DNA of 64,000 nucleotides from an uncultured virus (IMG/VR IMGVR_UViG_3300011991_000001) (Duplodnaviria > Heunggongvirae > Uroviricota > Caudoviricetes), in the IMG/VR virus record IMGVR_UViG_3300011991_000001; one strand, given 5' to 3'. The notes under the pieces are model-generated. The model did no database searches and was not told the DNA's origin. It saw only the letters and a list, made by a program, of their open reading frames with translations. The translations under genes and the position numbers were made by a program. Of this stretch, positions 4,398 through 55,640 are shown piece after piece (the first letter of the stretch is position 1; each line of letters begins with the position of its first letter).

Positions 4398-5009
4398 TCA
4401 AGATGCTATATTATGTAATTTCGGATATGGAGCAATATTATACTTTAGCATAGATAGAAGTTCTTTTCTCTTTTTGCCTTTGCAATTAAAATATATGTAT
4501 CTATGTTTTCTTGGTCTAGGAACTAAAACCGTATCTTCTTTATCTTCATGTGCGTGTCTATTATGTTTAGTAGTAGAACCATCTATCTTTACCCTATTAG
4601 TACGTTTTGCTGTTAATCCAGTATATATCCAATTGGTTGCTTGATATACATAACCTACATGACCGTGATCTGGTTCTGAATAAGATACTATAATCTCTTT
4701 ATCGAGTAACTTGATAGTGTTTCCTATCAAAAAACTTTCACCATTTCTAGGCACTTTATCATCAATCCACAACCTAGTTAACTCATAAACATTTAATTGT
4801 TGCTCATTACCACATATACCTCTACATACATTAGGACTAGCAGGGATACCGTAAATAATTACTCCTACTATTTTCTCTGTTAATTTCTCATATAAACCAA
4901 AGGAAAATACACAAGATGCTCTTCTATGTAAATAGTGTTTTTCAATAATTATTTCTGTTGCTATTTTATGTGTGACTGGTTTTATATAATAACTATCCTT
5001 TATACTCAT
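4398..5009 (-). CDS. mom: Mom-family (GNAT-like) adenine-modification protein
   Basis: HYLHR, YELTRLW, SYSEPDHGHVGYVYQATNWIYTG, KHRYIY motifs typical of Mu Mom homologues. Confidence 0.8.
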   Translation of the reverse strand: MSIKDSYYIKPVTHKIATEIIIEKHYLHRRASCVFSFGLYEKLTEKIVGVIIYGIPASPNVCRGICGNEQQLNVYELTRLWIDDKVPRNGESFLIGNTIKLLDKEIIVSYSEPDHGHVGYVYQATNWIYTGLTAKRTNRVKIDGSTTKHNRHAHEDKEDTVLVPRPRKHRYIYFNCKGKKRKELLSMLKYNIAPYPKLHNIAS

Positions 5010-5928: not shown

Positions 5929-6666
5929 TTAAATATTATTTATCCGCTTTTGTCCTAAATTATAATATGCTTCGTCAAGCTCAAACCCTATGTAATTTCT
6001 TCCTAAATTCCTAGCTGCAACAGCAGTTGTAAACGAACCCATACAGTTATCTAGCACTAAGTTTCCTTCATTTGTGTATGTATTGATTAAGTATTCAAAT
6101 AAAGCAACTGGCTTTTGTGTGGGATGTAGGGATTCTTTCTGTTTATCTGTAGGAAATAATATAACGCTTCTTGGGTATCTCTCTGTACTACCTCCACCTT
6201 TAATTCCAACTTTTGTTTTTCCATAATTAGTTCCATCGTCTTGATATTTTGTATAATTATGAACAGGGGTGTGGCCAAAAGTTTTTTGTGGATTATATGT
6301 AGGGAGTTTTTTATAGAAAATCAATATATTCTCATGCGCTTTCATTGGCATTCTCTTTGCATTAAGATGACCAGTAGCAGTTGTTTTCTCCCAAATCCAT
6401 TCATACCTAAGCATCTTTAAATTACTGCATCCTAAAACCTTATCAAATGGGGTTTGTGCTGTGAGAACAATTGCACCACGATCTTTTATAATGCGCTCAT
6501 ATTGTTCCCACAGAGGTTCAAAAGGAATAATACAGTCCCATTTATTTCTCGCTGTAGTTCCATATGGTAGGTCGCAAAGTATTAAGTCAATTGAGTTATC
6601 ATCAATCAAACACATACCATTATCCCCGATGCAGTCTTCATTATAAACCTTATTTAGTTCCAACAA
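5929..6666 (-). CDS. orphan amino-DNA methyltransferase (beta class)
   Basis: Motif IV DLPYG, HPTQKP, motif I DNCMGSFTT. Confidence 0.9.
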   Translation of the reverse strand: MLELNKVYNEDCIGDNGMCLIDDNSIDLILCDLPYGTTARNKWDCIIPFEPLWEQYERIIKDRGAIVLTAQTPFDKVLGCSNLKMLRYEWIWEKTTATGHLNAKRMPMKAHENILIFYKKLPTYNPQKTFGHTPVHNYTKYQDDGTNYGKTKVGIKGGGSTERYPRSVILFPTDKQKESLHPTQKPVALFEYLINTYTNEGNLVLDNCMGSFTTAVAARNLGRNYIGFELDEAYYNLGQKRINNI

Positions 6667-10388: not shown

Positions 10389-10814
10389 CTATAAGTTCTG
10401 TTTTATGAGTATACGGACTACATCTAATGCGTCAAAACAAATATCTCTAGCCTTAGTATTCATTGGTACTCCATTAATTTTACAATCATCTTTAGAAAGC
10501 AATATTACTATTTGGTTCAATAATTTCCCTATGTCATTGGAGTTATCGTCAAATACTACATCTTGTTCAATTACTTCTGTATCTTCATCATCAATAACTA
10601 ATTGAGAAACTTCTATCCCCAAATATCCACATAAATTTACAAGTGAATTTGCGTCAACCAATGCAAGAGATTCCTTTTTACTTATATCCAATAACCACGA
10701 GCTACTTACCCCAGCAGCCTTTGCAAAATCCGCATAGTTTTTAAATTCTGATCTCTCTTTATATAGAGTTATTTTTTCACCAACGTTCAAAACAATCATC
10801 CCTTCTATTGCCAC
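10389..10814 (-). CDS. XRE-family HTH regulator (YopS-like position)
   Basis: FAKAAGVSSSWLLDI HTH; LCGYLGIEVSQL. Confidence 0.8.
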   Translation of the reverse strand: MAIEGMIVLNVGEKITLYKERSEFKNYADFAKAAGVSSSWLLDISKKESLALVDANSLVNLCGYLGIEVSQLVIDDEDTEVIEQDVVFDDNSNDIGKLLNQIVILLSKDDCKINGVPMNTKARDICFDALDVVRILIKQNL

Positions 10815-11203
10815 TTACTATCAATATAATGATATCCTGAATCATTCCTAGATATTTTGCTAAAAACAATGGTGCAAGTTTTAGTAGTGCATACTAAAAC
10901 ATCTTTACTTGTCCATGCATCTATATCTTTATCAATAGTGTTTAAGACCCAATTCTCAGAGTCAGAAACTATATCAGGTAAATACTCAATGCCTCTGTTT
11001 ATATCTCTAAATAAGCGAAAATACGTCTTCTTTAAAAGTTGTGATAATACGTTTTTGCTCTCTAATTCAATTAATTCCTTCAAAAGATTTATCTGAATTT
11101 CTATTGCATATAAGCCTCTCGAATAACCTCTTGAATTTAAAGATATTTTAAAGAAGGATAATAATTTATACCTACTGTGCATTATAGACAAAATATCTTG
11201 CAT
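10805..11203 (-). CDS. hypothetical protein in repressor operon
   Basis: RBS AAGGAG; overlaps the XRE gene start. Confidence 0.6.
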   Translation of the reverse strand: MQDILSIMHSRYKLLSFFKISLNSRGYSRGLYAIEIQINLLKELIELESKNVLSQLLKKTYFRLFRDINRGIEYLPDIVSDSENWVLNTIDKDIDAWTSKDVLVCTTKTCTIVFSKISRNDSGYHYIDSKWQ

Positions 11204-11216
11204 AATATTTCTCCTT

Positions 11217-12269
11217 CTAAATATAGAGGTTAATTAAATCCTTAGTTTTTTGAAAATATTTCTCTCCGTCAAGTCCTTTTTCATTAGATCCATACTGAAA
11301 TCTTTCATTGAGAGAGATATAGTCCTTTTTAGTTAATTCTCCATTAGCATCTTTAATCACTTTAGCTGCGTCAATGATAGCACTAGTCCAGAGCGATGAT
11401 ATATTTAAATAGGGAGCATTTACCCATGATTGGATTCTTTGAATTCTATTAGCAATTAATTGGTGATCTATCTTACCAAATTTATTCTTGCCTGGCACAC
11501 GAAAAACATATTCCGTTTCGTTAATTGGGAATCCCTTTTCTGTTTTCTCGTAAATTCCTTCATCGTTCTTTTTAGATTTCAATCCATTACCAAAAATATA
11601 GTGCCCAGAATCAATAGTTTTTTTAATTAAATCAAGTGTATAATAATCTACATATAATTCTCTTAATTCGCCATCATTACTTGTTAGATAAATTAACTTT
11701 TCTTCCCATTGGATATCAGTAACTTTAAAATTAATAAATTCTTCTAAAGTGTTCCCTTTTTCAGTACGACCCCTAACTCCTAATCCCAATAATTCAATAA
11801 TTAGTTTATCTTGATAATTTACCAATAATTTTTGCCATTCTCTATTCTTAATTAATGGAATATAAGAGTTTTCAACTGCTTGAATATCAATATAGTTATC
11901 ATAAAATTTTGGAAGAATTAAACCGAAACGATTTTCAAAGTGCCTGACTAAGTTTTTGCTAATACAAAAATCTACATATTTTTTGAGAGGAGATAGATTT
12001 GATTGAAAAGCACTAATCGTTTTGTTTTTAAATTCAGCCAATAACAGCTCATCTCTCTCTTCAATATTGAAATTAAAAATGCTTTTCCCTATTTTAAATT
12101 CGTAAAAATCAGCTTTCTGCAAAATATAAGAATAGAATGTTCTTGTAGAACTAATTTGCGAATCAAGAAATTCCTCTTTGACACGTGGATCAACTTTAAA
12201 TGTCACCTCATTCTCTTGAAACCTATTGTCGTTTATTTCTTCAGTCAACATAAACACCAACCCTTTCAA
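11217..12269 (-). CDS. YopR/MrpR-like integrase-fold master repressor
   Basis: SAM-like N-terminus, LLGLGVRG...EEFINFKVTDI box, no HxxR catalytic motif; directly downstream of DGQHR gene as in SPbeta yopQ-yopR. Confidence 0.7.
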   Translation of the reverse strand: MKGLVFMLTEEINDNRFQENEVTFKVDPRVKEEFLDSQISSTRTFYSYILQKADFYEFKIGKSIFNFNIEERDELLLAEFKNKTISAFQSNLSPLKKYVDFCISKNLVRHFENRFGLILPKFYDNYIDIQAVENSYIPLIKNREWQKLLVNYQDKLIIELLGLGVRGRTEKGNTLEEFINFKVTDIQWEEKLIYLTSNDGELRELYVDYYTLDLIKKTIDSGHYIFGNGLKSKKNDEGIYEKTEKGFPINETEYVFRVPGKNKFGKIDHQLIANRIQRIQSWVNAPYLNISSLWTSAIIDAAKVIKDANGELTKKDYISLNERFQYGSNEKGLDGEKYFQKTKDLINLYI

Positions 12270-12278
12270 TTATTTCAA

Positions 12279-13655
12279 TCAGATTAGATTGTAAAAGAAT
12301 TTATACAGATTGTTTCTAGATGCTTTTTTCATATCATGGTCTGATATTTTAATATCTTTCCAAAAAGGATTATTTGTACCGAAGTTTACTTTGCTCAATG
12401 CTTGCTCAACTTTATCCTGCCATTCTTCCTCTTTTAAATCCAACCCATATAACTTCGCCGACAAAGCAATATATCCTGCAAACATATTCTTATGATTAAT
12501 ATACGAGATTTTTTTTGTTTCCTCTGGATGAATAATAAATTCTTCTACATTAAGACCAATAATAAAGTCTATAACATTGGCAATATGTTTTGCGATTGAT
12601 TTTGCTTGAAGACGATTTTGTAATCTGTCAGAGTAGGTGTCTTCCACAGAAATTGCCAAAGTAGACCTTTTTGCCAAGCCCCCAAATGCTAGTTCCGAAT
12701 CGGATTCTTTTATAGACTGAGCGAACTCGCTACTGGAATTATCTAAAATTAAATTGATGACAACATTACCTAATTTAGATGTGTCAAGTGATTTAATATG
12801 TTCCTGTTTCATAGGTTTTTGCTTATTAATTTGTACCATTTGTTTTTGGGCTTTAATTTCACTATAGTTGGTAACTATGAATACAAAAGTGAAGTCCAAA
12901 TCTGGGTTTTGAGAAATTGCTATTGAATTACCCACCTTACGATGTTGCCCATCTACGATATTTTTGATACCTGAAATAATATTTAAGTCACCATTCTTAT
13001 CATATCTTATTTCGTCCTCACCATTTTTTAATACATTCATAACTATAGCGTCTGGGAAATATTCACCTGAAAGAAGTCCTTCAGCAATTTCCTTCGCTTT
13101 TGTTTTATTTAAACTAATTTTCTTCATTCCAAAAGCGTCATAAACTGGGTCGCGTTGAGTTTTAAAATTGTAAATGAATTCATTACCTGCGTCTAATTCA
13201 GCAAATTGTCTTGACTGCAAACCTCCTAACCAACACCCCGTCGCAATCTCTAACATATTATGAAATACAATTACCTCGTCTTTCTCTCCCTCTTTTTTTG
13301 CTAGTTTATAATTTTTCAAATTTTCAACTTCGATTGTGGTAAAATGGTCTTCAATAATTATTTTATTCCAATCGTTTATTTCTCCTAGGGACTCACTAGT
13401 GGTATTTTCCTTAAAAGTCAGAGCCTTAAACATACCAGATGCAAAAACAAATAATAGAATTAATTCATTTTTTATACCAATATCAAGAGTTGACAACAGT
13501 CTTCTTTCAGTTAAAATACTAACTGCAATACTAGCCTTCATATTTCTACTATTGAATTCTTCCTTAACTATGTCTCTTATTTTGTCATTCCCTGCATATT
13601 TTTTTATTAATACATTGAGATTTAATATGAGCTGATCTGCTTCGTCTTTTAACAT
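12279..13655 (-). CDS. YopQ-like DGQHR (DndB/ParB-like) protein
   Basis: YNFKTQR and IVDGQHR motifs; 458 aa. Confidence 0.75.
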   Translation of the reverse strand: MLKDEADQLILNLNVLIKKYAGNDKIRDIVKEEFNSRNMKASIAVSILTERRLLSTLDIGIKNELILLFVFASGMFKALTFKENTTSESLGEINDWNKIIIEDHFTTIEVENLKNYKLAKKEGEKDEVIVFHNMLEIATGCWLGGLQSRQFAELDAGNEFIYNFKTQRDPVYDAFGMKKISLNKTKAKEIAEGLLSGEYFPDAIVMNVLKNGEDEIRYDKNGDLNIISGIKNIVDGQHRKVGNSIAISQNPDLDFTFVFIVTNYSEIKAQKQMVQINKQKPMKQEHIKSLDTSKLGNVVINLILDNSSSEFAQSIKESDSELAFGGLAKRSTLAISVEDTYSDRLQNRLQAKSIAKHIANVIDFIIGLNVEEFIIHPEETKKISYINHKNMFAGYIALSAKLYGLDLKEEEWQDKVEQALSKVNFGTNNPFWKDIKISDHDMKKASRNNLYKFFYNLI

Positions 13656-13773: not shown

Positions 13774-15312
13774 TTACAATGCTTCTTTTAGTCTCATATA
13801 TTCGTCATAATACATCCATTTAAGCTTCTCACCTGTTATTGGATGTTTTCCAGCAGATTTCTTTTTATTTGTACAACATTGACAAATCCCACCATGACCT
13901 TTCATCATATATGCTTTAGTTGCTTCTTTTTGTGAATTGAATATCTCTCCTGTAGTTACGCAAATTACTTGCTTGCAGTTTTTCTCTGCTAGTGAAGTTA
14001 CATTCCTTTTTCTTTCTTCTTTCCCGTCATAAGTACACCAACCCAATTCTACTCCTTGGTTAAGATACGTCCAAATTGCACTTTTGCTTAATTTTAGTAT
14101 ATTAGCTAGTTCTAATACATTATTAATTCCACTATCCCATAGTTCGCAAGTTATCTTAACTAGACTAGAGCATGCGTATTCATGGCACAATGCCCAATCT
14201 ACATCAGATTCTTTAAAATTTAATAACTTTATTAGTTGGCTCAACGTAATGTTGTTTTTAATCCATTCTATTTTAGAATACGTACAATCTAGAATTATAT
14301 AGTTACTAACACCATTATCTTTAGCTAATTGTTTTTTTATTTTATCATTTTCTTGTATATTGCTTAATTTGCCCCAAGTTCCAGTAACTTGCTTATAGTG
14401 TTGTAACCCATGAGTCTCAATTATACAATTTATATTCTTTATATAAAAGTCGTATCTATAATTTTTACACCATTTGAAAGTTTTCTTACTTAACTGTATC
14501 TGAAAGTCTACATTTAACTGTTCTAACATATTAAACAGAAATTTTTCTGGATATGATATATTATCAGAGCACTTATTGCATCCAAACCCATTATTAATTA
14601 AATTGTTAATAATAATTTCCTTCACATAACCACAATCTGGGCACTTAGCGAGTATTTTGCTACTCGATATTAAATCATAATTAATTGCGTCACCTTTATT
14701 TACTAAATAAGTTTCTAAATCAGGATGCATCATTAATATTGAATTACATATTTTACAGTCAATATTTATAATCCTACCACTTGTGAAACTGTTAATATTA
14801 TTTAATTCTGACAAATGCTCAGGATGATCCAAGCATTTAAACCAATATCCTTTTTTATTTATACCCCTAGACCCATATCCAACTAATTTTGGGGTTAATA
14901 CATTACCATTCTTATCAAGATTTAAACTATAATCCCATTTTGACAAAATAGAATCGGATTGTTCTTTAGGTAAATTATCGTAACACCATTGATAAAATGA
15001 TTTTCCATTATTTAATCTTGATATCCTATAATTATTATCTCCATATAATACCATGGCACACGTATGGCAATAATATTTACCGTCTTCTTTTGCACACTTT
15101 AAATAATCTTGCCACCTTACGGGTTTTGATATTGGTGTTTTACATTCTTTATGGTCACATTTTACAATAACCTCAACAACTGAACCATTTTGTAAGTCTA
15201 TGGTTTTAATTTCAAATTCATCTTTAAATTTTGTAAAAATATACCCCTTACTTTCATAGTATTCTTTGTATCTTGAATGCCATCTTATTATCACCGTCTC
15301 ACTTATAAGCAT
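13774..15312 (-). CDS. zinc-ribbon/PD-(D/E)xK (Vsr/DUF559-like) endonuclease with C-terminal NUMOD1-like domain, homing-endonuclease-like
   Basis: Multiple CxxC; RYDFYI...IETHGLQHY; KQVICVTTGEIFNSQKEA...SAGK...LKW; start taken at ATG after GGAGG. Confidence 0.75.
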   Translation of the reverse strand: MLISETVIIRWHSRYKEYYESKGYIFTKFKDEFEIKTIDLQNGSVVEVIVKCDHKECKTPISKPVRWQDYLKCAKEDGKYYCHTCAMVLYGDNNYRISRLNNGKSFYQWCYDNLPKEQSDSILSKWDYSLNLDKNGNVLTPKLVGYGSRGINKKGYWFKCLDHPEHLSELNNINSFTSGRIINIDCKICNSILMMHPDLETYLVNKGDAINYDLISSSKILAKCPDCGYVKEIIINNLINNGFGCNKCSDNISYPEKFLFNMLEQLNVDFQIQLSKKTFKWCKNYRYDFYIKNINCIIETHGLQHYKQVTGTWGKLSNIQENDKIKKQLAKDNGVSNYIILDCTYSKIEWIKNNITLSQLIKLLNFKESDVDWALCHEYACSSLVKITCELWDSGINNVLELANILKLSKSAIWTYLNQGVELGWCTYDGKEERKRNVTSLAEKNCKQVICVTTGEIFNSQKEATKAYMMKGHGGICQCCTNKKKSAGKHPITGEKLKWMYYDEYMRLKEAL

Positions 15313-15446
15313 TTCTCTATCCTCCTCCACATTATACAACTATAATATAATTATACCACAAAACAATACAAAACACAAGTATAAGTAATAAATAAAACAA
15401 ACTACTCACAAAAACATTCGCAAGTAGTTTTACTATAATTATTAAA

Positions 15447-15854
15447 TTAAACAGCAATACCCAACGTTTTACCAACAAGTAAAGCAACAGCCATTGCTGG
15501 AACCATATTATTGTGTTGCAAAGCCCGATTATACAACACTTTAATCTCATGTAGCACCATGTTTTCACCTTGAATACTTTCTTTATTCTTACCTAAACCT
15601 GCTAAAGAATGTTGCTCAATATGAAAATCAATGTCTATTTCTAATAGATCCTTTTTCTTATCTAAGATTGCCATTGCTTCTTTTGCTTGCTGATCCCCTA
15701 TGTATGCTCTACACTCTTCGCTGAAGCTCTTGTAAGACACATACACGTACTCTGAGGTGTCTATTTTATGGATGCTACCTTTGTGTGCAAAGCACCCCAT
15801 CTGGTCTTTAATTACCCATACAGTCCTATCACCCTTAACATCACAACTACTCAT
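15447..15854 (-). CDS. hypothetical protein, paralogue of 26113-26403
   Basis: Shared R.VWVI.D..G and Y.S.KSF..ECRAY motifs. Confidence 0.7.
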   Translation of the reverse strand: MSSCDVKGDRTVWVIKDQMGCFAHKGSIHKIDTSEYVYVSYKSFSEECRAYIGDQQAKEAMAILDKKKDLLEIDIDFHIEQHSLAGLGKNKESIQGENMVLHEIKVLYNRALQHNNMVPAMAVALLVGKTLGIAV

Positions 15855-15921
15855 ACAAAAACATCTCCCTTATTAATTTTTAATTCTGACTATGATTCAT
15901 TGGTGCAATAAATTGCGCCTT

Positions 15922-15999
15922 TTATTCTCTAGGGTTTGCTACAAATATTGCTTGATATGTTGCTAAGTCATCCAAGGATAAAGTCATCCAAAAATCCAC
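15922..15999 (-). CDS. putative 25-aa small protein MDFWMTLSLDDLATYQAIFVANPRE
   Basis: Strong RBS AAGGAGGTG; GTG start; downstream of a LexA-boxed promoter; an overlapping ATG gives only MWIFG*. Confidence 0.4.
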   Translation of the reverse strand: MDFWMTLSLDDLATYQAIFVANPRE

Positions 16000-16073
16000 A
16001 TATGATCCACCTCCTTTATTAAGTATCGGTCGCTCTAACAGAAAACTTTAGCCCGTACATTGCCTTTGTTAAC

Positions 16074-16102
16074 AGTATATATTAGAACGCACGTTTGGTC
16101 AA
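16074..16102 (-). promoter_or_regulatory. sigmaA promoter with Gram-positive LexA (Cheo) box in the spacer
   Basis: TTGACC-17-TATACT; AGAACGCACGTTTG at 16084-16097 fits GAAC-N4-GTTY. Confidence 0.7.
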
Positions 16103-16439
16103 GTAGAACAAATGATAGGTTGTAGAATGATTCTACGTCTAATTATTCTACGATTCGACAAACTACTTTTAATTATATATTTTTAGTATTCCGACTATTT
16201 TGATGGGAATTTTATAAGGGTTATATGTAAGTAACACGTTTCACTGATACAGTACATAGTTACGAACTTTATCACAGATACAGTTTACTCTTTAATTTAA
16301 TAAAGTCAATGGTTTATAAGGGGTTGAAATAAATATATTATGTAGGATCTTTCTGAAATATTTGTGTCAGTTACCCCTCCCCTACCGCCCCGTACTATTT
16401 CAGTATATACAATATAAATAATATTGTCAAAGGTTATAT

Positions 16440-17060
16440 TTAATCTACAAAAGTGTACATTTTTTGTCCCAATGTGCTTATGCTGAGGAGTTCGAGCAAT
16501 AATCCAAAGCAACTGGCAATAACAATAATTTTTATATGTAGTAGTAAGAAGATGGTCATTAGCATTGTCCATGTAGTTAGGTATATTGAAGACCATTTTT
16601 TGAATTTGACTTTTTGCTTTTGATCTGTGATAGGCTTGTTAGGAGTATCTCGTGGTACGTACCTAATTATTATATATATAGCTACTATAATACTAAATAT
16701 AAATAGACTATAAATATTTATGTATGTCCAATACTTCTGAGTATACTGGACTATTATTGAACTTATGATAAATTGAGTTAGACTTATAACCATACAACCC
16801 AAGAAGTTTTTTAAATGATATCCTCCTGCTATAATTCTTAATGATGAGAAGGTAAATGTGATAGCTATAACAGGCACTAGAACCCCTAGAATGGACGCTA
16901 GTGACACCAATAATATCCCCTTGACCAATGCCCCAATGATGACCATAAACCCATACTCAAACACCTCGATTTGATCTTCTACACTTGGATAAATTTCATT
17001 AGAAACTTTTGTGGATAAATATCTGGCACAATAATTTGATGTACTCTGAATTGTAATCAT
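16440..17060 (-). CDS. agrB: AgrB autoinducing-peptide processing protein
   Basis: EVFEYGF, LRIIAGGYH....GC (catalytic His/Cys), YVPRDTPNKPI; multi-TM, 206 aa. Confidence 0.95.
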   Translation of the reverse strand: MITIQSTSNYCARYLSTKVSNEIYPSVEDQIEVFEYGFMVIIGALVKGILLVSLASILGVLVPVIAITFTFSSLRIIAGGYHLKNFLGCMVISLTQFIISSIIVQYTQKYWTYINIYSLFIFSIIVAIYIIIRYVPRDTPNKPITDQKQKVKFKKWSSIYLTTWTMLMTIFLLLHIKIIVIASCFGLLLELLSISTLGQKMYTFVD

Positions 17061-17086
17061 TAATTATTTAATCTTCCTTTCTTTTC

Positions 17087-17857
17087 TCATGCGAATACCA
17101 ATTGAGGACTTACGCTACGATTATGATTATTTTCATATTGATAAGTTTTTTGAGTATTCATATTATCTAAGTATTCAATAGCGTCTTGCTCATTCATTCT
17201 TATGTCGATCACACCTTGAGATTTTAGCATTGCAATATTTACTTTTTTAAGAATTTCTGGAGAACATTCTGCTATTTTTTGTATCACACCATTTTGGGAC
17301 AATCTTCTTTTTGAAACGCAACGAATTTGTTCACAGCATATAATTGACTCTTGAGGAAGTCCACAGTCAGATCCCACAGATACGTGCGTTGGTTGAGGCT
17401 TCCGACTGCGGGAAGTGAGGGGGATGATCAGAGTTGTACTAGAAAAGTGATTTCCTACATTATTCTGTACTACGAGGCAAACTCTAACTCCTCCTTGTTC
17501 GGAGTCCAAAACTTCTCCTAGATTTACGTAACAAAATTCCCCTCTTTTTACTTGAAGATTTTTTATTTGTTCCATATCATTGTTGCTGTAATTTGAATAT
17601 CCACAAGCCATTGTTAAATCTTTCAAAGATACCCTTCCTTCTGAATTGTCGGAGATCAATTTTAGATAAGGTATCGTTGGGTATGTAGTTATTCTTGCGT
17701 TGATAACTGAACTTAAGTATTCACCACTAGTTTTCATGTTCGCTGCGAATCCATTTACAGTTCGCTCTTGCCCTTTTGCACGAATTACATAATTGGCTAG
17801 TTTCTTAAAATCCTTTTTAACATTTTCCTCAGTTTTAGTAGTTGATTTGTTAAACAT
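17087..17857 (-). CDS. XRE-like HTH fused to PemK/MazF endoribonuclease domain
   Basis: N-terminal ~100 aa HTH-like (RTVNGFA...EYLSSVIN...PTIPYLKLI); C-terminal KRGE..VNL...SEQGGVR..LVVQN..GN...IIPLTS...CEQIR. Confidence 0.85.
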   Translation of the reverse strand: MFNKSTTKTEENVKKDFKKLANYVIRAKGQERTVNGFAANMKTSGEYLSSVINARITTYPTIPYLKLISDNSEGRVSLKDLTMACGYSNYSNNDMEQIKNLQVKRGEFCYVNLGEVLDSEQGGVRVCLVVQNNVGNHFSSTTLIIPLTSRSRKPQPTHVSVGSDCGLPQESIICCEQIRCVSKRRLSQNGVIQKIAECSPEILKKVNIAMLKSQGVIDIRMNEQDAIEYLDNMNTQKTYQYENNHNRSVSPQLVFA

Positions 17858-17908
17858 ATTAATACACTCCTTCTTATAAATAATATATAATTAACATTCA
17901 ATAACGTT

Positions 17909-17937
17909 ACTATACCTTATTTATATTAAGAATGCAA
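17909..17937 (-). promoter_or_regulatory. sigmaA promoter for HTH-PemK/agrB
   Basis: TTGCAT-17-TATAGT. Confidence 0.6.
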
Positions 17938-17979
17938 CTAAATTATTACTAATATGTAAAATAATTATATTTTATTATT

Positions 17980-18005
17980 ACAGGGAGGACTTATGTCCTC
18001 CCTGT
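17980..18005 (-). terminator. perfect 11-bp hairpin after agrD
   Basis: ACAGGGAGGAC-TTAT-GTCCTCCCTGT; U-tract weak. Confidence 0.6.
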
Positions 18006-18019
18006 TTGGAATTATGTAC

Positions 18020-18136
18020 TTATTTTAAGCACTTTGGAGTTTGTGGTTGGTGCGTAAATAGCCATGACGCAAAAACACCTGAAAACATTGTGGCTACAAC
18101 TGTAACAACGCAAGCAATAATAGAATACTTTTTCAT
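18020..18136 (-). CDS. agrD: AgrD-type cyclic peptide precursor MKKYSIIACVVTVVATMFSGVFASWLFTHQPQTPKCLK (38 aa; absent from ORF track)
   Basis: Hand-translated; RBS GAGGAGGTG; hydrophobic leader, S-WLFT core and HQPxxPxxL tail as in clostridial AgrD. Confidence 0.9.
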   Translation of the reverse strand: MKKYSIIACVVTVVATMFSGVFASWLFTHQPQTPKCLK

Positions 18137-18176
18137 TTTAATTTCACCTCCTCTCACTATTAGATATCTATCTACA

Positions 18177-18980
18177 TCAGTCATTTACGTCATCTTGCAT
18201 AATAAGATTTTCGTAAGTCTGTTGTATTTGTTTTTCTTTTGTTAATAAATAATTAACAAAAGTTAGAAACCATGTAATCAAAATTATTGGGGCAGATATT
18301 ATGGTCATAATTATAATTAATTGATCTAAAATCGTCTGGTCTACTAGAATATCATTGATCATAATTAATTTAGCAATGTAGATGATCACCAAAACCGTAA
18401 ATATAACTATAGCTAGAAAACTATTTGTAAAAAATTTATTCTTGACTATTGTATTAAAGAGATTAACTTGTATACTGTTGTTTTTTCTTATTATAATGAA
18501 TAATAAGATACATATTTCAATGATTCTGGCAGGGAGTGTTAATAGTAGGTTATATGATATATTATCATTGAAATAGCTTATGGGTTGATGTAATAATGAA
18601 AGAACAATCGGTATGTATAGGATTTCAACTAATCCAATTATAACAAAACTGACAAATGTAAAAAGGATTGTCTTAATAATCAGTTTCTTATTCACAGAGT
18701 AACTATTTTTTGTAATGATATAAATCATAATAGCATTCATCATTATTAAACCTGTTAATGATATTATTGGCTTTGGAATAATTATTATGTACCTAAAAAT
18801 GTTTATCATAATAGCTACTGGTATGACTGGTATCATGATCCACTTCAAATTATGTTTCCACATTTGTATGTCTAGCATGTCAAAACGTCTCAAGAATATT
18901 AATGTCATTGTCACCAAAAATATATTTTCTGGTATTGATACCAAGATCGTGTTGAGTAAAGCATTTATTACATTTTGCAT
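18177..18980 (-). CDS. AgrC-sensor-like polytopic membrane protein lacking a histidine-kinase domain
   Basis: About 7 hydrophobic segments, directly upstream of agrD; ends ~20 aa after last TM with no H-box or HATPase. Confidence 0.65.
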   Translation of the reverse strand: MQNVINALLNTILVSIPENIFLVTMTLIFLRRFDMLDIQMWKHNLKWIMIPVIPVAIMINIFRYIIIIPKPIISLTGLIMMNAIMIYIITKNSYSVNKKLIIKTILFTFVSFVIIGLVEILYIPIVLSLLHQPISYFNDNISYNLLLTLPARIIEICILLFIIIRKNNSIQVNLFNTIVKNKFFTNSFLAIVIFTVLVIIYIAKLIMINDILVDQTILDQLIIIMTIISAPIILITWFLTFVNYLLTKEKQIQQTYENLIMQDDVND

Positions 18981-19014
18981 ATGTATTGCCTCTTTCTGTT
19001 TTTATCTTAGTATC

Positions 19015-19043
19015 ATTGTAACAGAAGAGTATACATATGTCAA
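19015..19043 (-). promoter_or_regulatory. extended -10 sigmaA promoter for receptor-agrD
   Basis: TTGACA-17-TACAAT with TGn. Confidence 0.7.
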
Positions 19044-19609
19044 TGAAATAAATTATATATTTGTAGTTTTTTATTAGATTCTTTTATACAATAATATATT
19101 ACCAAGAAGACAAATGATCTGACAATAATATCGCCAATTGACATCACGCACCATCCGAAGTCCCATGTGTCACAAATTGGGATCAAATTACTATACATAT
19201 TCCCAATTATATGGAAATCTCCAACTGCTAATGTTTTTTCAAACATATCTGGTTTAGCATATCCAGTAGCCCAAGAATTTGAAACGAAAACAGGCATCTT
19301 CCCACCATTTGCTCTCATTGCTATCACATTTAATGAAGTTCCTATCCATATAAGAGGTGTAGAATACAAGAAGACATTCATCCTGTCATAATGTATTGCT
19401 AGTATAAGTAAAGAGCTTAGATAGGCTGTTTTGAAGACATTAGCATACTTTATTAATGAGTAGTCACCCTGCCATATCATAGATTCTAAGTAAATATATA
19501 TCAAGGCCATGAATATGACGGGGTAAATACTCCAGTGTTTAAATATGGGAAGCAATTTATTTTTGCGTATTCGAGCTATTATAAAAGCTAATAGAACTGT
19601 CTCAATCAT
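19040..19609 (-). CDS. DUF5317-like membrane protein
   Basis: LNVIAMRANGGKMPV...H...LIPICD...SIGDII; start at MIETVLL after AAGGAG. Confidence 0.75.
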   Translation of the reverse strand: MIETVLLAFIIARIRKNKLLPIFKHWSIYPVIFMALIYIYLESMIWQGDYSLIKYANVFKTAYLSSLLILAIHYDRMNVFLYSTPLIWIGTSLNVIAMRANGGKMPVFVSNSWATGYAKPDMFEKTLAVGDFHIIGNMYSNLIPICDTWDFGWCVMSIGDIIVRSFVFLVIYYCIKESNKKLQIYNLFH

Positions 19610-19628
19610 GGGTTTTACATCTCTCCTT

Positions 19629-20033
19629 TTATGCATAAGCAACATTACTTCTTGCATCTACTAATCCCAATTGAATTGAAATTCCCTTATCCAGTTTACT
19701 AATTATATGACTACTACAAATTCCTACTTTTTCTAATAAATCTCCTGTAGAAACTAAATTTATTTGCTCGCACATAGCAATAGATTTTACCCGTAATCCA
19801 GTTTCTACTGATACTTCGACATCTACGTGGGTAGGCATCCACTTTTTCGCCCTAGATGTTAGTGGTATGTACTGTAAAACTGGGGAGTGCTTACATGCTA
19901 TAGAATTCGAGCAGATTATTATCGGCCTCAATCCTCCCTGAATTGAATTACCCGTAATAGGTAGATTTACCATATAAATATCCCCACGATTGATTTGTTG
20001 CACTTGGCTAACATTGTTCATTTGATTCATCAT
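19629..20033 (-). CDS. mazF: PemK/MazF-family endoribonuclease, no adjacent antitoxin
   Basis: INRGDIYMVNL, IQGGLRP, IPLTS, CEQI. Confidence 0.9.
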   Translation of the reverse strand: MMNQMNNVSQVQQINRGDIYMVNLPITGNSIQGGLRPIIICSNSIACKHSPVLQYIPLTSRAKKWMPTHVDVEVSVETGLRVKSIAMCEQINLVSTGDLLEKVGICSSHIISKLDKGISIQLGLVDARSNVAYA

Positions 20034-20165
20034 TGTATCTGCCTTCTTTCTTAGTTTTATTTCTTACTTATATTATTCCCCCTCTGCTTGGATTTATACC
20101 TACACATAATTATATATGTGGCAATTCCTGTATTATGTGTACAAGGGATGACTTATTTATAACTC

Positions 20166-20195
20166 ATTATACAATGACAAGAAGGCTACTGTCAA
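20166..20195 (-). promoter_or_regulatory. sigmaA promoter for mazF-DUF5317 with ~125-nt leader
   Basis: TTGACA-18-TATAAT. Confidence 0.6.
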
Positions 20196-21834
20196 GCATA
20201 ATACTACATTTTTTATTAAAATATGCTATATTTCGCATGTTTTATGTAAATTAAACAACTCATTCATTCTACTAAATATCTATTTGCATAATCTCAAAGA
20301 ATCTCTTCTTTAATAAAGCATTCTCTTTATCCAACATAGCCATCTCAAGTATATGTAAATTAATCTTTTTAGAAATCATACTTCTATCTTTCAAAATCTG
20401 TCTTAACTCTTCCTGCTCATCTTCACTTACAATTTTCATTATGTATTACTCTCCTCTCCTTTAAACTTTGCATTTTAATCTAGGATTTCCTTATATAAAT
20501 TATGAATTTCTCCACTAATTTCATCTAGACTTCTGCTACAAGTTTTATAATCGGTGCAGAAAAAATCATAGTTTTCTTTGGCGTTTTCTTCATTGATGAA
20601 ATCAGGGTTTTGAACTGCCCACCCTAACATAGATACAATCTCTCCCAATTCTCTAATTCTATAAAATAGATCCTTTGACTTTTCAGGATTTAATGTTTTC
20701 ATACTAAGCTTCCCTTCTTTTGTAAATCACATGAATGCAATATTTTAATTGTTTAACTTATAAACTTCAAATATATTACTGCTACCATCGTCATAAATAA
20801 ACCTTGCCTTATTTATATATGTTTCTCCAAGATCCTTTACAACAACCTTTATACCGTTTATGTATGGAGTATATCCATGCTCTCCATCAATTGTATTAGC
20901 GCACATTATTACATCCTTCATAATTACAGTATATCCTTTTCTGGATACTTGAATTTCTACTGGTATTGGTGGCAACGAGTCTAACAAACCCATCATCTTT
21001 TTTAAATCATCAATTGATATACTATCTTTTGTACTCATATTATCCTCCTTTCTAACATCAAATACTTGATTGAAGCTGATTACCCAATACTAAAATTACA
21101 TAACCCTTTGACTTCTTCAGGCTCCTCAATCCGTTCATAAATCCCAAAAATATAATTAAACATATAAAACCATCTTTTTGCTAAACATGTCTGATGCAAA
21201 CCAGATTCTATGTATTCAATAACCGCATAATCATAAATCGTCTCATTAATATCGCAACAATTTTCTCTTACAGATTGATCTGCTTCTTTAAAAGTTTCTT
21301 TATACCCAAAGCACCTTGAATCCGTCACACCATAATCAACATTTAATTGCTCAATTCCAGTAATAAAAAACATTATATTGCCTCCTTTCTATCCACAGTT
21401 TTCAAATTCATTAACTTGATAAGGAACTAATTCACCGTCATACTGGATCTTATAAGCAATACCATTCTTATCAATTTCCACACAACAATCCATGCAATAG
21501 TACCCACTCCAGTCTATTTTGTTTACGTGTTTACTTCCACAATTCGGACATACATCAATAGTTTTTGTTTCTTTTGCCATTATAATCACTCCTAAATATT
21601 ATTTATTAGTCTATGTATAATTATACATTTTACTATAATTTAATTACATCATCCAATTCTTCTTCTATGTATTTTAGTAAAAATTCCTCGATAGTCATAT
21701 CTCCATTTATAGAATTAACTTCTATATTGCTTTCCTTTAATTTCTTAATTGCTAATTCAAGCCAACTTATATGATAATAACTCATGAAATCACCTCCTAA
21801 ATACTTCGAAATTAAAGTTTGATAGGATTTTACC

Positions 21835-22524
21835 CTATTTTGTATAATACTCCCATCTTAACGGTTCGCCAGTTTCTAAATTACCTGCAAATTTTTGTAG
21901 ATTCCTACAGCATTTAGATATATTACTTCTATCTACCCCATATTGCTTTCCTGCTTCTTTTTGAGTATTAAATATCTCACCAGTAGTTAAGCATTTTACT
22001 TGTTTACATACTCCTACGACTTTAGATGTCCTGCCATTTATCACACACATAGGACATATAAATCTGCGACCTCTATCTCTTAGTCTCATAAAATCTCTAA
22101 TCACTGTTTCTTTTTCATAACCACAATCAGGACATTTAATAAAACCCTTTACGTTTGATCCTGATGAATATTTTAATGTATCTTCTTCGTTTACAAAATA
22201 TTTAACTAAATAGGGATGGGTTATGGCTATTGTTTCAAATGTACTTGACCTATCCCCATGACCATTATTAACACATGCACAGTCATGACAATAGCATCCT
22301 CCTTTTTTATACATACGCTTTTTATAATCCTTCCATATCATAGGCTTTAGCATCTCTCCACAACTATCACATAGAACATTTACTATTGCTCTAGAACCAA
22401 CAGATAAATCGTCTATATTGACTTCAAATTCATCATTCCATTTGGTAAAACTATAACCTTTAAATTCATACCATTTTTTATTTTTACGACTCCATCTAAC
22501 TTTTACAAATTTAGTTAATAACAT
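21835..22524 (-). CDS. zinc-ribbon + NUMOD1-like protein, nuclease-less paralogue of 13774-15312
   Basis: Same N-terminus (KGY.FTK..DEFE), KCPDCGY and TTGEIFN.QKEA tail; lacks the YDF/ETHG segment. Confidence 0.75.
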   Translation of the reverse strand: MLLTKFVKVRWSRKNKKWYEFKGYSFTKWNDEFEVNIDDLSVGSRAIVNVLCDSCGEMLKPMIWKDYKKRMYKKGGCYCHDCACVNNGHGDRSSTFETIAITHPYLVKYFVNEEDTLKYSSGSNVKGFIKCPDCGYEKETVIRDFMRLRDRGRRFICPMCVINGRTSKVVGVCKQVKCLTTGEIFNTQKEAGKQYGVDRSNISKCCRNLQKFAGNLETGEPLRWEYYTK

Positions 22525-26740: not shown

Positions 26741-27643
26741 TTATAAGTTAAATATTCTGTTTTTTGCAATATTTATGTATTCAGGATTTAATTCTATACC
26801 TATGTAATTCCTGTTTAATCCTTTAGCCACTACAGCAGTTGTACCACTTCCCATGAATATATCCATCACTATCCCATTTTCAGGGCATCCTGCCTTAACT
26901 GGTGTCTTTACTAACTCTTCTGGAAACACTGCAAAGTGAGCTTCCTTTAAAGGTTGGGTATTTATTGACCACATTGACCTTTTATTTCTTTCAGTATATA
27001 AAGTAACAGTATCCTTATTATCTCCGCACATCGCACTTTGAAATTTAGTTCTTGTTTTACTACTACCACGCTTTCCAAAATAGCTATCTTTTACAGGTTC
27101 TTTTTGTTGTTCAAAGTAATACTTTTTATTCTTGGTGAAAAAGAATAATCTTTCATAATCTACAGTAAATCTGTCTTTAACACTCGATGGCATTGCATTA
27201 GGTTTATGCCAAATAATATCATTTCTACAAATCCAACCTCTGTCTATCATTTGGATTTTGAATCTGTCGGGGATACAACATAAACTTTTATTAGGAACAA
27301 TGTCGTTTGTTTTTCCTCCTGCATATGTATCACCTAAATTAACCCAACAAGTACCATCCTCAGTAAGAACTCTTTTAACTTCATCAAAGATATCACATAG
27401 ATGTTTTATGTATAAATTAAATGTTGGTTCTGAACCTAATTCTCCTCTCCATACATCACAACCTTCTTCTTCATCCCAAATTTGTGGATCTGTATTATAA
27501 TTTCTTAATCCCCAATATGGAGGGCTAGTAATAACCATGTTTATTGTATTGTCTGGAATCTTCTTCAGTTCGTCTAATACATTACCTTGTACAATTGTAT
27601 TTGTAATATCATTAATATTATATATATTAATTCCTTCTCTCAT
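26741..27643 (-). CDS. orphan amino-DNA methyltransferase (beta class, probably N4-C)
   Basis: TSPPY, HFAVFP, DIFMGSGTT. Confidence 0.9.
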   Translation of the reverse strand: MREGINIYNINDITNTIVQGNVLDELKKIPDNTINMVITSPPYWGLRNYNTDPQIWDEEEGCDVWRGELGSEPTFNLYIKHLCDIFDEVKRVLTEDGTCWVNLGDTYAGGKTNDIVPNKSLCCIPDRFKIQMIDRGWICRNDIIWHKPNAMPSSVKDRFTVDYERLFFFTKNKKYYFEQQKEPVKDSYFGKRGSSKTRTKFQSAMCGDNKDTVTLYTERNKRSMWSINTQPLKEAHFAVFPEELVKTPVKAGCPENGIVMDIFMGSGTTAVVAKGLNRNYIGIELNPEYINIAKNRIFNL

Positions 27644-55487: not shown

Positions 55488-55563
55488 TGCGTGATAGCTC
55501 AGTTGGTAGAGCGTCTGACTGTTAATCAGAATGTCGCAAGTTCGAACCTTGCTCTCGCAGCCA
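55488..55563 (+). tRNA. tRNA-Asn(GTT)
   Basis: Cloverleaf TGCGTGA/TCTCGCA, D arm, TCTGA-CTGTTAA-TCAGA, GTTCGAAC, encoded CCA. Confidence 0.93.
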
Positions 55564-55566
55564 AAT

Positions 55567-55640
55567 GCCGAAATAGTTTAATGATAAAACTTCTGTTTTG
55601 TAATCAGAGATTCACAGTTTGATTCTGTGTTTCGGCTCCA
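55567..55640 (+). tRNA. tRNA-Thr(TGT), somewhat degenerate
   Basis: GCCGAAA/TTTCGGC acceptor, loop TTTGTAA, T-loop TTTGATT (non-canonical), encoded CCA. Confidence 0.8.

Follow-up and report, generated by a model that had tools for sequence, protein, structure and literature searches.

A putative Agr-type peptide-signalling cassette in the arbitrium position of an SPbeta-like phage of Clostridium

Why would a phage carry genes for an Agr-type peptide signal, together with MazF-type ribonucleases, at the place where its relatives carry arbitrium? To our knowledge, no system other than arbitrium has yet been worked out by which phages gauge each other's numbers. The question is raised by the uncultured virus record IMG/VR IMGVR_UViG_3300011991_000001, of which a stretch of 64,000 nucleotides (the window) was analyzed. 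Judged by its genes, the window is DNA of a large SPbeta-like phage of Clostridium, and its natural host is an uncultured member of that genus in a soil metagenome. The six co-oriented minus-strand genes listed in the initial annotation are all present, and their order of transcription is mazF, DUF5317, TM7, agrD, a hairpin, the helix-turn-helix (HTH)-MazF fusion, and agrB (Table 1). TM7 is the name given here to a 267-residue, seven-helix membrane protein without a kinase domain. The cassette looks like a new way for phages to communicate. The probability is put at about one half that it is a self-contained phage Agr-type peptide-signalling module, in which TM7 would bind a lactone and HTH-MazF would relay the signal beside the yopQ/yopR switch.

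The signal genes are recognizable by family. Hidden Markov model searches for AgrB, AgrD, PemK and DUF5317, proposed as a check in the initial annotation, matched each family in Pfam or NCBIfam. The agrD start codon lies behind the ribosome-binding site AGGAGGTG. The natural reading of the window AgrD is a predicted ring of five residues, SWLFT, followed by HQPQTP. Because this ring begins with serine, the predicted product would be a lactone. All AgrD copies have a hydrophobic leader that ends in ..(V)FA, then a serine, four variable residues and (H/Y/S/N)QPx(T/S)P; serine, four residues and xQPxxP are found in all 41 precursors aligned (4 of them from duplicate contigs). The leader junction, ..VFA/S, would fit the general signal peptidase I. 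The AgrB motif GGxH(x6)C, whose histidine and cysteine we take to be catalytic, is kept in 22 of 22 phage-type AgrB proteins. The DUF5317 gene probably starts near 19609, since its homologues begin at MIE... DUF5317 is fused to MFS_3/MFS_1 transporters in Atlas clusters from Chloroflexota and Actinomycetota, and these fusions hint at an export-linked role.

The cassette recurs in related phages. A search with a TM7 profile found eight loci on IMG/VR contigs of 47-167 kb, one of them the window's own record; the ninth viral/host locus is a 93%-identical copy on a contig of a Clostridium metagenome-assembled genome, G001. A scan of metagenomes gave 35 further loci, of which 4 are duplicates of viral contigs and 24 are phage-type. 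The order TM7-AgrD-HTH-MazF-AgrB is present in all nine viral/host loci. DUF5317 is found in eight of the nine, and the free-standing mazF, the least conserved part, in six; one locus is cut by a contig end, and no mazF was seen in L011 or L012. A YopQ-like gene follows the cassette in all eight loci that reach that far, and a YopR-like gene in six. In the phage-type metagenome loci AgrD comes after TM7 in 24 of 24; of those with room for the next genes, 19 of 19 continue with HTH-MazF and 15 of 16 with AgrB. The exception is L077 (1-7792), which reads DUF5317-TM7-AgrD-HTH-MazF-TM7-TM7-HTH-MazF-orf135-YopQ and so contains TM7 three times and HTH-MazF twice and lacks agrB. With the order kept in every viral/host locus and in most metagenome loci, the genes are co-conserved in related phages. 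Among GenBank phages no relative was found: a sensitive blastn search with the cassette and a megablast search with the structural region gave only tRNA matches, and tblastn with the window AgrB and TM7 gave no match in 50,697 phage records.

Which protein goes with the peptide? In two near-identical phage copies, nearly all of the differences fall in TM7 and agrD. The DNA of the window and of G001 is 99-100% identical at 15000-17700 and 19600-20000, and 60-77% identical at 18100-18800, the segment that holds TM7 from about residue 60 onward and agrD; the rings are SWLFT in the window and SWLWS in G001. Across a set of 32 non-redundant loci, TM7 identity is 85, 63, 48, 41 and 36% at 0, 1, 2, 3 and 4 ring differences, and HTH-MazF identity falls only from 77% to 51% over the same range. 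The partial Mantel correlation between ring and TM7 is 0.52 given HTH-MazF (reached in 0 of 5000 permutations), 0.44 given AgrB and 0.64 given DUF5317 (0 of 3000 each). The reverse tests, given TM7, yield -0.03 for ring and HTH-MazF, 0.06 for ring and AgrB, and -0.06 for ring and DUF5317. In 22 pairs whose HTH-MazF proteins are at least 89% identical, the TM7 groups follow the ring type. The four variable ring residues co-vary with TM7, and not with AgrB, DUF5317 or HTH-MazF. Since agrD lies between TM7 and HTH-MazF, plain linkage does not account for this asymmetry. Co-variation of receptor and peptide, which the initial annotation suggested looking for, is therefore strong and specific to the membrane protein TM7, both in the Mantel tests and in the near-identical pair.

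TM7 itself has no family match in Pfam, NCBIfam or PHROG. Its AlphaFold2 model (mean predicted local distance difference test score 85.9) has seven long helices and a cytoplasmic C-terminal helix at residues 244-266, and the positive-inside pattern is consistent with an N-out/C-in topology. A profile search of 1.84 billion representatives gave 231 relatives; the best 150 of them are all at most 326 amino acids long, and none is fused to a kinase. The TM7 cluster in the Atlas has 637 members, 76% of them viral, and one structural neighbour there is a 412-residue Bacillota protein (TM 0.64). No solved full-length AgrC is among the fold-search matches, and a wide VIA-align search gave a best Z of 7.2, to coiled-coil-like pieces only. 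Conservation is higher in the tail than in the core (60% vs 37%), and E18, D37, E119, N144 and R152 are invariant. Nine phage loci carry an extra TM7 paralogue after agrB, without an agrD of its own. These paralogues are 70-89% alike whatever the local ring, and their cytoplasmic tails differ; they might respond to another signal, for example the host's.

The conventional parts of an Agr circuit were looked for in two sets. Pfam finds neither HATPase_c_5 nor HATPase_c, nor any other kinase or LytTR family, in the 64 open reading frames (ORFs) of the window, and HATPase_c_5, HATPase_c and LytTR are each absent from five related phage records (0 of 5), two of which, 166.7 and 167.5 kb long and bearing terminal repeats, are complete genomes. 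The initial annotation had stated that histidine kinase, agrA and mazE are all missing; the first two absences are borne out, and the third holds for the neighbouring ORFs examined, where no antitoxin-family ORF flanks either RNase, the phage having not been exhaustively searched for MazE. A 55-residue ORF upstream of mazF has no Pfam match, and a promoter-like site lies between the two.

Arbitrium is missing as well. AimR (PF22871) was found in 0 of 8 virus records, not in the G001 genome and, by Pfam, in none of the 64 window ORFs, and the B. subtilis control was positive. As to mutual exclusivity with aimR, which the initial annotation proposed to check, AimR is absent from all related phage records searched. 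The phage is placed in the SPbeta group by a YonO-like single-subunit RNA polymerase of 883 amino acids (window 50199-52850), an SPbeta hallmark, which is 50% identical to that of SPbeta/phi3T over 98% of its length and 59% identical to that of Clostridium phage D-1873; these matches indicate that SPbeta-like phages extend into Clostridium. Terminase, portal, prohead protease, ligase and methylases are also among the window genes (Pfam/PHROG). The SPBc2 annotation runs from yopK (AimR by Pfam) through yopL (AimP) and yopM to yopP to yopQ and yopR. Because yopK (aimR) and yopL (aimP) there stand ahead of yopM to yopR, the cassette is, by gene order, in the aimR-aimP (arbitrium) position relative to yopQ-yopR. 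The claims that the cassette lies just upstream of YopQ-like and YopR-like genes and in the arbitrium slot of an SPbeta-like phage are thus upheld, by Pfam (DndB, MrpR_N_CB), by BLASTP to SPBc2, by YonO and by the SPBc2 gene order. The XRE genes that had been placed with them (10805-11203 and 10389-10814, beyond the YopR-like gene) could not be confirmed, Pfam giving no match to either. The match of the YopR-like protein to YopR/MrpR is confined to the N-terminal MrpR domain. MrpR/YopR is described as the master repressor of SPbeta (PMC10516654).

If TM7 reads the peptide, what does it act on? The candidate output is the HTH-MazF fusion, whose family has 69 members of about 260 amino acids. 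Its PemK domain spans residues 104-209 (Pfam E 3.7e-22), and the MazF domain matches B. subtilis MazF/EndoA by sequence (E 1.8e-29), by Foldseek (E 1.8e-12) and by VIA (Z 17). Residues 8-90 form an XRE-type HTH domain: VIA-align gives Z 10.2 to 2ofy_B (76 residues aligned, root mean square deviation 2.5) with about 35 other XRE-type chains at Z 7-9, and hhalign links the N-terminus to a 210-residue bacterial XRE protein that passes Pfam HTH_3 (probability 96.5%, E 1e-9). A direct Pfam scan of eight fusion N-termini gave no HTH family, so the assignment is made from the fold match and the profile link. By this evidence the label HTH-PemK in the initial annotation is right.

Both RNases of the cassette have the MazF fold, and the residues that align with B. 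subtilis MazF are kept: the GGvR arginine does not vary, and the ..TSR turn retains its threonine or serine. We assume both positions to be catalytic. By these residues and the AgrB motif, the enzymes appear intact. Residues 216-256 of the fusion are poorly modelled. A complex prediction for a dimer of the MazF domain (fusion residues 100-222) with the TM7 tail (232-267) scored 0.01 and 0.00, against a mark of 0.32, which speaks neither for nor against a contact. The two window proteins have in common a C-terminal motif, ..N(V/I)A(Y/F)A, which lies beyond the MazF fold (17087-17110 and 19629-19650). A C-terminal ..A(F/Y/C)A(R/Y) is found in 22 of 24 fusions and ..AYA(N) in 12 of 16 free MazFs; this tail may serve for docking or as a tag for degradation.

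The favoured reading joins these parts as follows. AgrB, by its family, would cut and cyclise the 38-residue AgrD, and general signal peptidase I would remove the leader after ..VFA, leaving the five-residue lactone cyclo(SWLFT). DUF5317 probably aids export, as suggested by where it lies in host agr operons and by the proteins that join it to MFS exporters. The co-variation marks TM7 as the putative peptide-specific partner, and most likely the receptor; its variable membrane core would read the ring, and its conserved cytoplasmic helix or tail would pass the state on. The output is most likely the XRE-HTH-MazF protein, acting on DNA, RNA or both, and so on transcription and/or RNA stability; its adjacency, the duplicated TM7 and HTH-MazF pairs, and the XRE regulators beside bacterial TM7 relatives point to this role. 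From its position, the module would bias a yopQ/yopR-type lysis-lysogeny switch by the density of related phages or lysogens. We regard the roles of TM7 as receptor and of HTH-MazF as output as each probable.

Bacteria, too, carry relatives of TM7. Long ones (297-326 amino acids) are flanked by agrB and agrD and accompanied by a convergent XRE HTH_3 gene (L014, L016, L088, L089 and L091), and in L083-L085 a TM7 relative lies beside an AgrD-like ORF and a 210-residue XRE protein; the TM7 relatives of L015 and L017 have no XRE gene. DUF5317 is present in 24 of 30 genomes of the nearest genus. Its phage-like subfamily heads operons of the form DUF5317 - 161-residue membrane protein - AgrB - AgrD in 7 of 7 loci. 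This membrane protein of common clostridial agr operons, here called m161, has homologues in 77 of 150 genomes of the bacterial family, and it adjoins AgrB in most of 47 loci. Some host agr operons (L031-L037 and L094-L133) carry two or three tandem m161 copies. In hhalign comparisons with m161, TM7 residues 1 to about 170 reach a probability of 88.7% (E 2.6e-6) with the long forms and 75.6% (E 2.4e-5) with phage TM7, and the probability is 27% with a smaller alignment; the invariant PEE, E119 and P150 motifs are aligned. Across 39 host operons m161 tracks the cysteine-containing ring (r=0.27 given AgrB, 0 of 2000 permutations). AgrB (r=-0.05) and DUF5317 do not, though agrB lies between m161 and agrD. 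Since m161 is homologous to TM7 and also tracks the ring, a ring-specific module probably older than the phage cassette is suggested, and TM7 would be this module extended by two helices and a cytoplasmic tail. The m161 protein may be the peptide-specific component of clostridial agr operons. Gene order suggests that m161 and DUF5317 are CPE1562 and CPE1563 of the C. perfringens operon CPE1563-CPE1562-agrB-agrD (PMC2706048).

The same homology gives the strongest alternative, which we nevertheless consider rather unlikely. The cassette could be a module that only produces the peptide, with TM7 serving ring-specific maturation, export or self-protection, the MazF proteins being separate cargo, and a host receptor, such as a VirS-type kinase or some other membrane enzyme, perceiving the signal, if it is perceived at all; the peptide would then mimic or jam host quorum sensing. 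VirS is a receptor of C. perfringens. The match of TM7 to m161 (76-89% by hhalign), the place of m161 in DUF5317-m161-AgrB-AgrD operons and its co-variation with the ring, and the resemblance of the phage AgrD tail to host AgrD all agree with such a role, and phage agr genes that act on the host have already been proposed (PMC3901668). However, near-identical phages pair different rings with different TM7 alleles, which favours a specificity partner borne by the phage. Extra TM7 paralogues exist without an agrD substrate, L077 duplicates the TM7 and HTH-MazF pair without agrB, and TM7 exceeds m161 by two helices and a conserved cytoplasmic tail. The fit of the ..VFA/S junction to the general signal peptidase would make a ring-specific leader peptidase unnecessary, and XRE regulators recur beside bacterial TM7 relatives.

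An improbable alternative starts from the RNases. In a density-gated toxin or defence island, the MazFs would serve superinfection exclusion, abortive infection or addiction, and the peptide would tune their firing without a role in lysis-lysogeny. There are indeed two MazF-type genes with the catalytic residues kept and no MazE adjoining, both share the unusual C-terminal ..A(Y/F)A tail, and PHROG files both under moron/host takeover; in phi3T, MazF has been described as a domesticated defence mechanism (PMC10769878). Against such an island stand the constant placement of the cassette, immediately ahead of yopQ/yopR-like genes wherever a locus is long enough to include them, the absence of arbitrium from the same phages, the fusion of one RNase to an HTH domain homologous to regulators beside bacterial TM7 genes that lack MazF, and the dispensability of the free-standing mazF in some loci. 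That host agr and toxin genes were picked up together as accidental cargo without joint function is very improbable: the parts resemble host genes, and homing endonucleases and mosaicism show frequent recombination in the region, but the genes hold their order in phage contigs of 54-167 kb even where protein identity is as low as 27-40%, the co-variation is specific and the enzyme motifs are conserved.

Several points weigh against a self-contained signalling module with TM7 as its receptor. The free-standing mazF and DUF5317 are not universal. The Mantel tests correct only partly for relatedness, and the counts are of loci and not of independent events. The TM7 tail correlates with HTH-MazF (r=0.68 given the TM7 core, 0.36 given AgrB), but AgrB correlates with the tail equally well (0.39), and the sub-domain results flip once three deep branches are removed; shared phylogeny largely accounts for this co-variation. 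The invariant charged residues of TM7 would also suit an enzyme or a transporter. TM7 has no informative fold match, Foldseek giving nothing at E <= 0.001. No similarity to AgrC-type sensors was detectable: hhalign against 13 Clostridium HATPase_c_5 kinases gave probabilities of 2% with their N-termini and 8% at full length. The m161 protein, without an output domain, also tracks the ring, so that the specificity might be one of maturation, export or immunity. The suggested link to lysogeny is drawn from position only.

How far does the cassette resemble known systems? With staphylococcal and clostridial Agr it shares the histidine/cysteine motif of AgrB, a short AgrD, a five-residue ring, the xQPxxP tail and a hypervariable peptide with a co-varying membrane partner. 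Staphylococcal Agr has peptide specificity groups. Unlike Agr, the cassette is without AgrC kinase or AgrA/LytTR in the window and the related phage genomes searched. Its ring starts with serine (a predicted lactone), the protein that co-varies is the kinase-less TM7 and not AgrB, and the candidate output is XRE-HTH-MazF. The host form of the clostridial agr operon has in common with the cassette the DUF5317 subfamily, m161 as a homolog of the first five TM7 helices, AgrB and a related AgrD tail, but its m161 lacks the last two helices and the tail, its ring contains cysteine, and it has no HTH-MazF or MazF. With type II MazEF the cassette shares the MazF fold and the aligned arginine and threonine/serine; it differs in that no MazE lies beside either RNase, that one of them is fused to an XRE HTH domain of a kind typical of other antitoxins, and that both carry a C-terminal ..AYA/AFA extension, which the solved B. 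subtilis MazF/EndoA chains in the alignment (116-117 residues) do not have.

Arbitrium is found in the same phage lineage, at the same place relative to yopQ-yopR, and likewise has phage-specific peptide variants, secretion of the peptide being predicted here. In phi3T a MazF ribonuclease is part of the downstream logic (PMC10769878), arbitrium acting through host MazE-MazF by way of a MazE-like AimX (PMC10769878; bioRxiv 10.1101/2025.11.23.689978). This makes a MazF output in the arbitrium slot credible. In contrast to arbitrium, the cassette has no AimR, its peptide would be cyclic and read at the membrane, not a linear one that is taken up, and its MazF is encoded by the phage and fused to a DNA-binding domain rather than being host MazF under a phage MazE-like AimX. 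The C. difficile myovirus phiCDHM1 also carries Agr signal genes on a phage, in the form agrB-agrD-agrC with a conventional AgrC histidine kinase (PMC3901668). It is an unrelated type of phage, without MazF, DUF5317 or TM7, and is the only phage agr case found in the literature search. Full-text searches, which did not cover supplements, gave no description of the cassette, of TM7 or of an HTH-MazF output, and none of DUF5317. A statement in a review that SPbeta-like phages carry agrB/agrC (PMC11945551) was not counted as prior art; reference 92, one of the two that it cites, is a paper on a Borrelia phage.

Table 1. Features of the cassette and its surroundings. Positions are those of the window unless a locus is named.
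Feature	Positions	Strand	Evidence and remarks
Promoter-like site TTGACA-18-TATAAT, 12/12	20166-20195	minus	Upstream of mazF; consensus match only
mazF, free-standing MazF/PemK endoribonuclease gene, 134 amino acids, ends ..NVAYA	19629-20033	minus	Pfam PF02452, E 1.2e-18; PHROG MazF-like growth inhibitor
DUF5317 membrane protein gene, 205-residue ORF	19040-19657	minus	Pfam PF17248, E 2.1e-15
Promoter-like site, 11/12, TG-extended	19015-19043	minus	Upstream of TM7; consensus match only
TM7, 267 amino acids, seven helices, no kinase domain, conserved cytoplasmic tail (~244-267)	18177-18980	minus	AlphaFold2
agrD, 38-residue precursor, starts MKKYS	18020-18136	minus	TIGR04223, 29.7 bits vs cut-off 19
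GC-rich 10-base-pair hairpin after agrD	17981-18004	minus	Possible terminator, without a clean T run; read from sequence
HTH-MazF fusion, 256 amino acids: XRE-HTH (8-90), MazF (~100-215), C-terminal extension ending ..QLVFA	17087-17857	minus	
agrB, 206 amino acids	16440-17060	minus	Pfam PF04647, E 5.5e-36; GGxH(x6)C motif
585-base-pair stretch after agrB, without conserved gene	15855-16439	no strand	Comparison with related loci
orf135, 135-residue protein of no assigned family	15447-15854	minus	Often between the cassette and the yopQ-like gene; Pfam: no match
YopQ-like (DndB-like) gene	12279-13655	minus	Pfam DndB; BLASTP to SPBc2 YopQ, E 8e-23
YopR/MrpR-like gene, candidate master repressor	11217-12269	minus	Pfam MrpR_N_CB, 48 bits, cut-off 27; BLASTP to SPBc2 YopR, E 4e-8
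TM7 paralogues in other loci	L007 8746-9597; L009 6001-6834; L010 5998-6861; also L063, L067, L071, L073, L077, L081		

The division of the cassette into three promoter units, as first annotated, fared less well than its gene content. The units rest on consensus matches, and promoter-like sites overall do not exceed their frequency in shuffled sequence (37 against 33.5, standard deviation 4.7); three transcription units would be a plausible arrangement. An imperfect palindrome at 17885-17926, with the centre TAACGTTA, lies just upstream of the HTH-MazF gene. It is AT-rich and may be an operator or a chance match. Apart from it, a search for repeats within the cassette gave only AT-rich chance matches.

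The 585-base-pair stretch after agrB has a strong ribosome-binding site, followed by an ORF of 5 codons (MWIFG) or 25 codons, and a hairpin that would be the better terminator on the plus strand. Comparison with 19 related loci shows no conservation of the peptide or of the DNA, and an Rfam match in the stretch was dismissed as a chance microRNA match. Homologs of orf135 are found in L002, L005, L006, L009, L010 and L077. Two related HNH/homing-endonuclease-like genes lie at 13774-15339 and 21835-22524, the former preceding the YopQ-like gene downstream of the cassette. In other phages an endonuclease gene of the same kind is inserted between mazF and DUF5317, and such insertions suggest that mobile endonucleases help to shuffle the region. 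Elsewhere in the window, genes for tRNA-Asn(GTT) and tRNA-Thr(TGT) are found at 55488-55640, flanked by PhoH/PIN and exonuclease genes. At 4398-5009, 5929-6666 and 26741-27643 the phage has a Mom-like gene for DNA modification and two genes for N6/N4 DNA methylases, a heavy anti-restriction load.

What would such a cassette mean for phages and their clostridial hosts? In the widest form of the proposal, which is tentative and on the doubtful side, Agr-type cyclic peptides would be sensed without a kinase by a new family of seven-helix receptors that act directly on XRE regulators, fused to an active MazF in SPbeta-like clostridial phages; phage dialects would set lysis or lysogeny, and m161 would be the missing peptide-specific component of the widespread clostridial agrBD operons. 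For many clostridial agrBD loci no receptor is known. Since the TM7/m161 family, and not AgrB, tracks the ring, it offers a concrete candidate, in long and short forms, for the peptide-specific component of these loci. For a DNA-binding domain joined to an intact MazF RNase as candidate signalling output, no described counterpart was found in the literature searched. A cyclic-peptide system in the same slot in phages of another host genus would show that the slot serves communication modules in general as a socket, and swaps there would offer a natural experiment in module exchange. If the proposal is true, the cassette would be a second class of phage-to-phage communication, chemically unrelated to arbitrium and spoken in many private "dialects".

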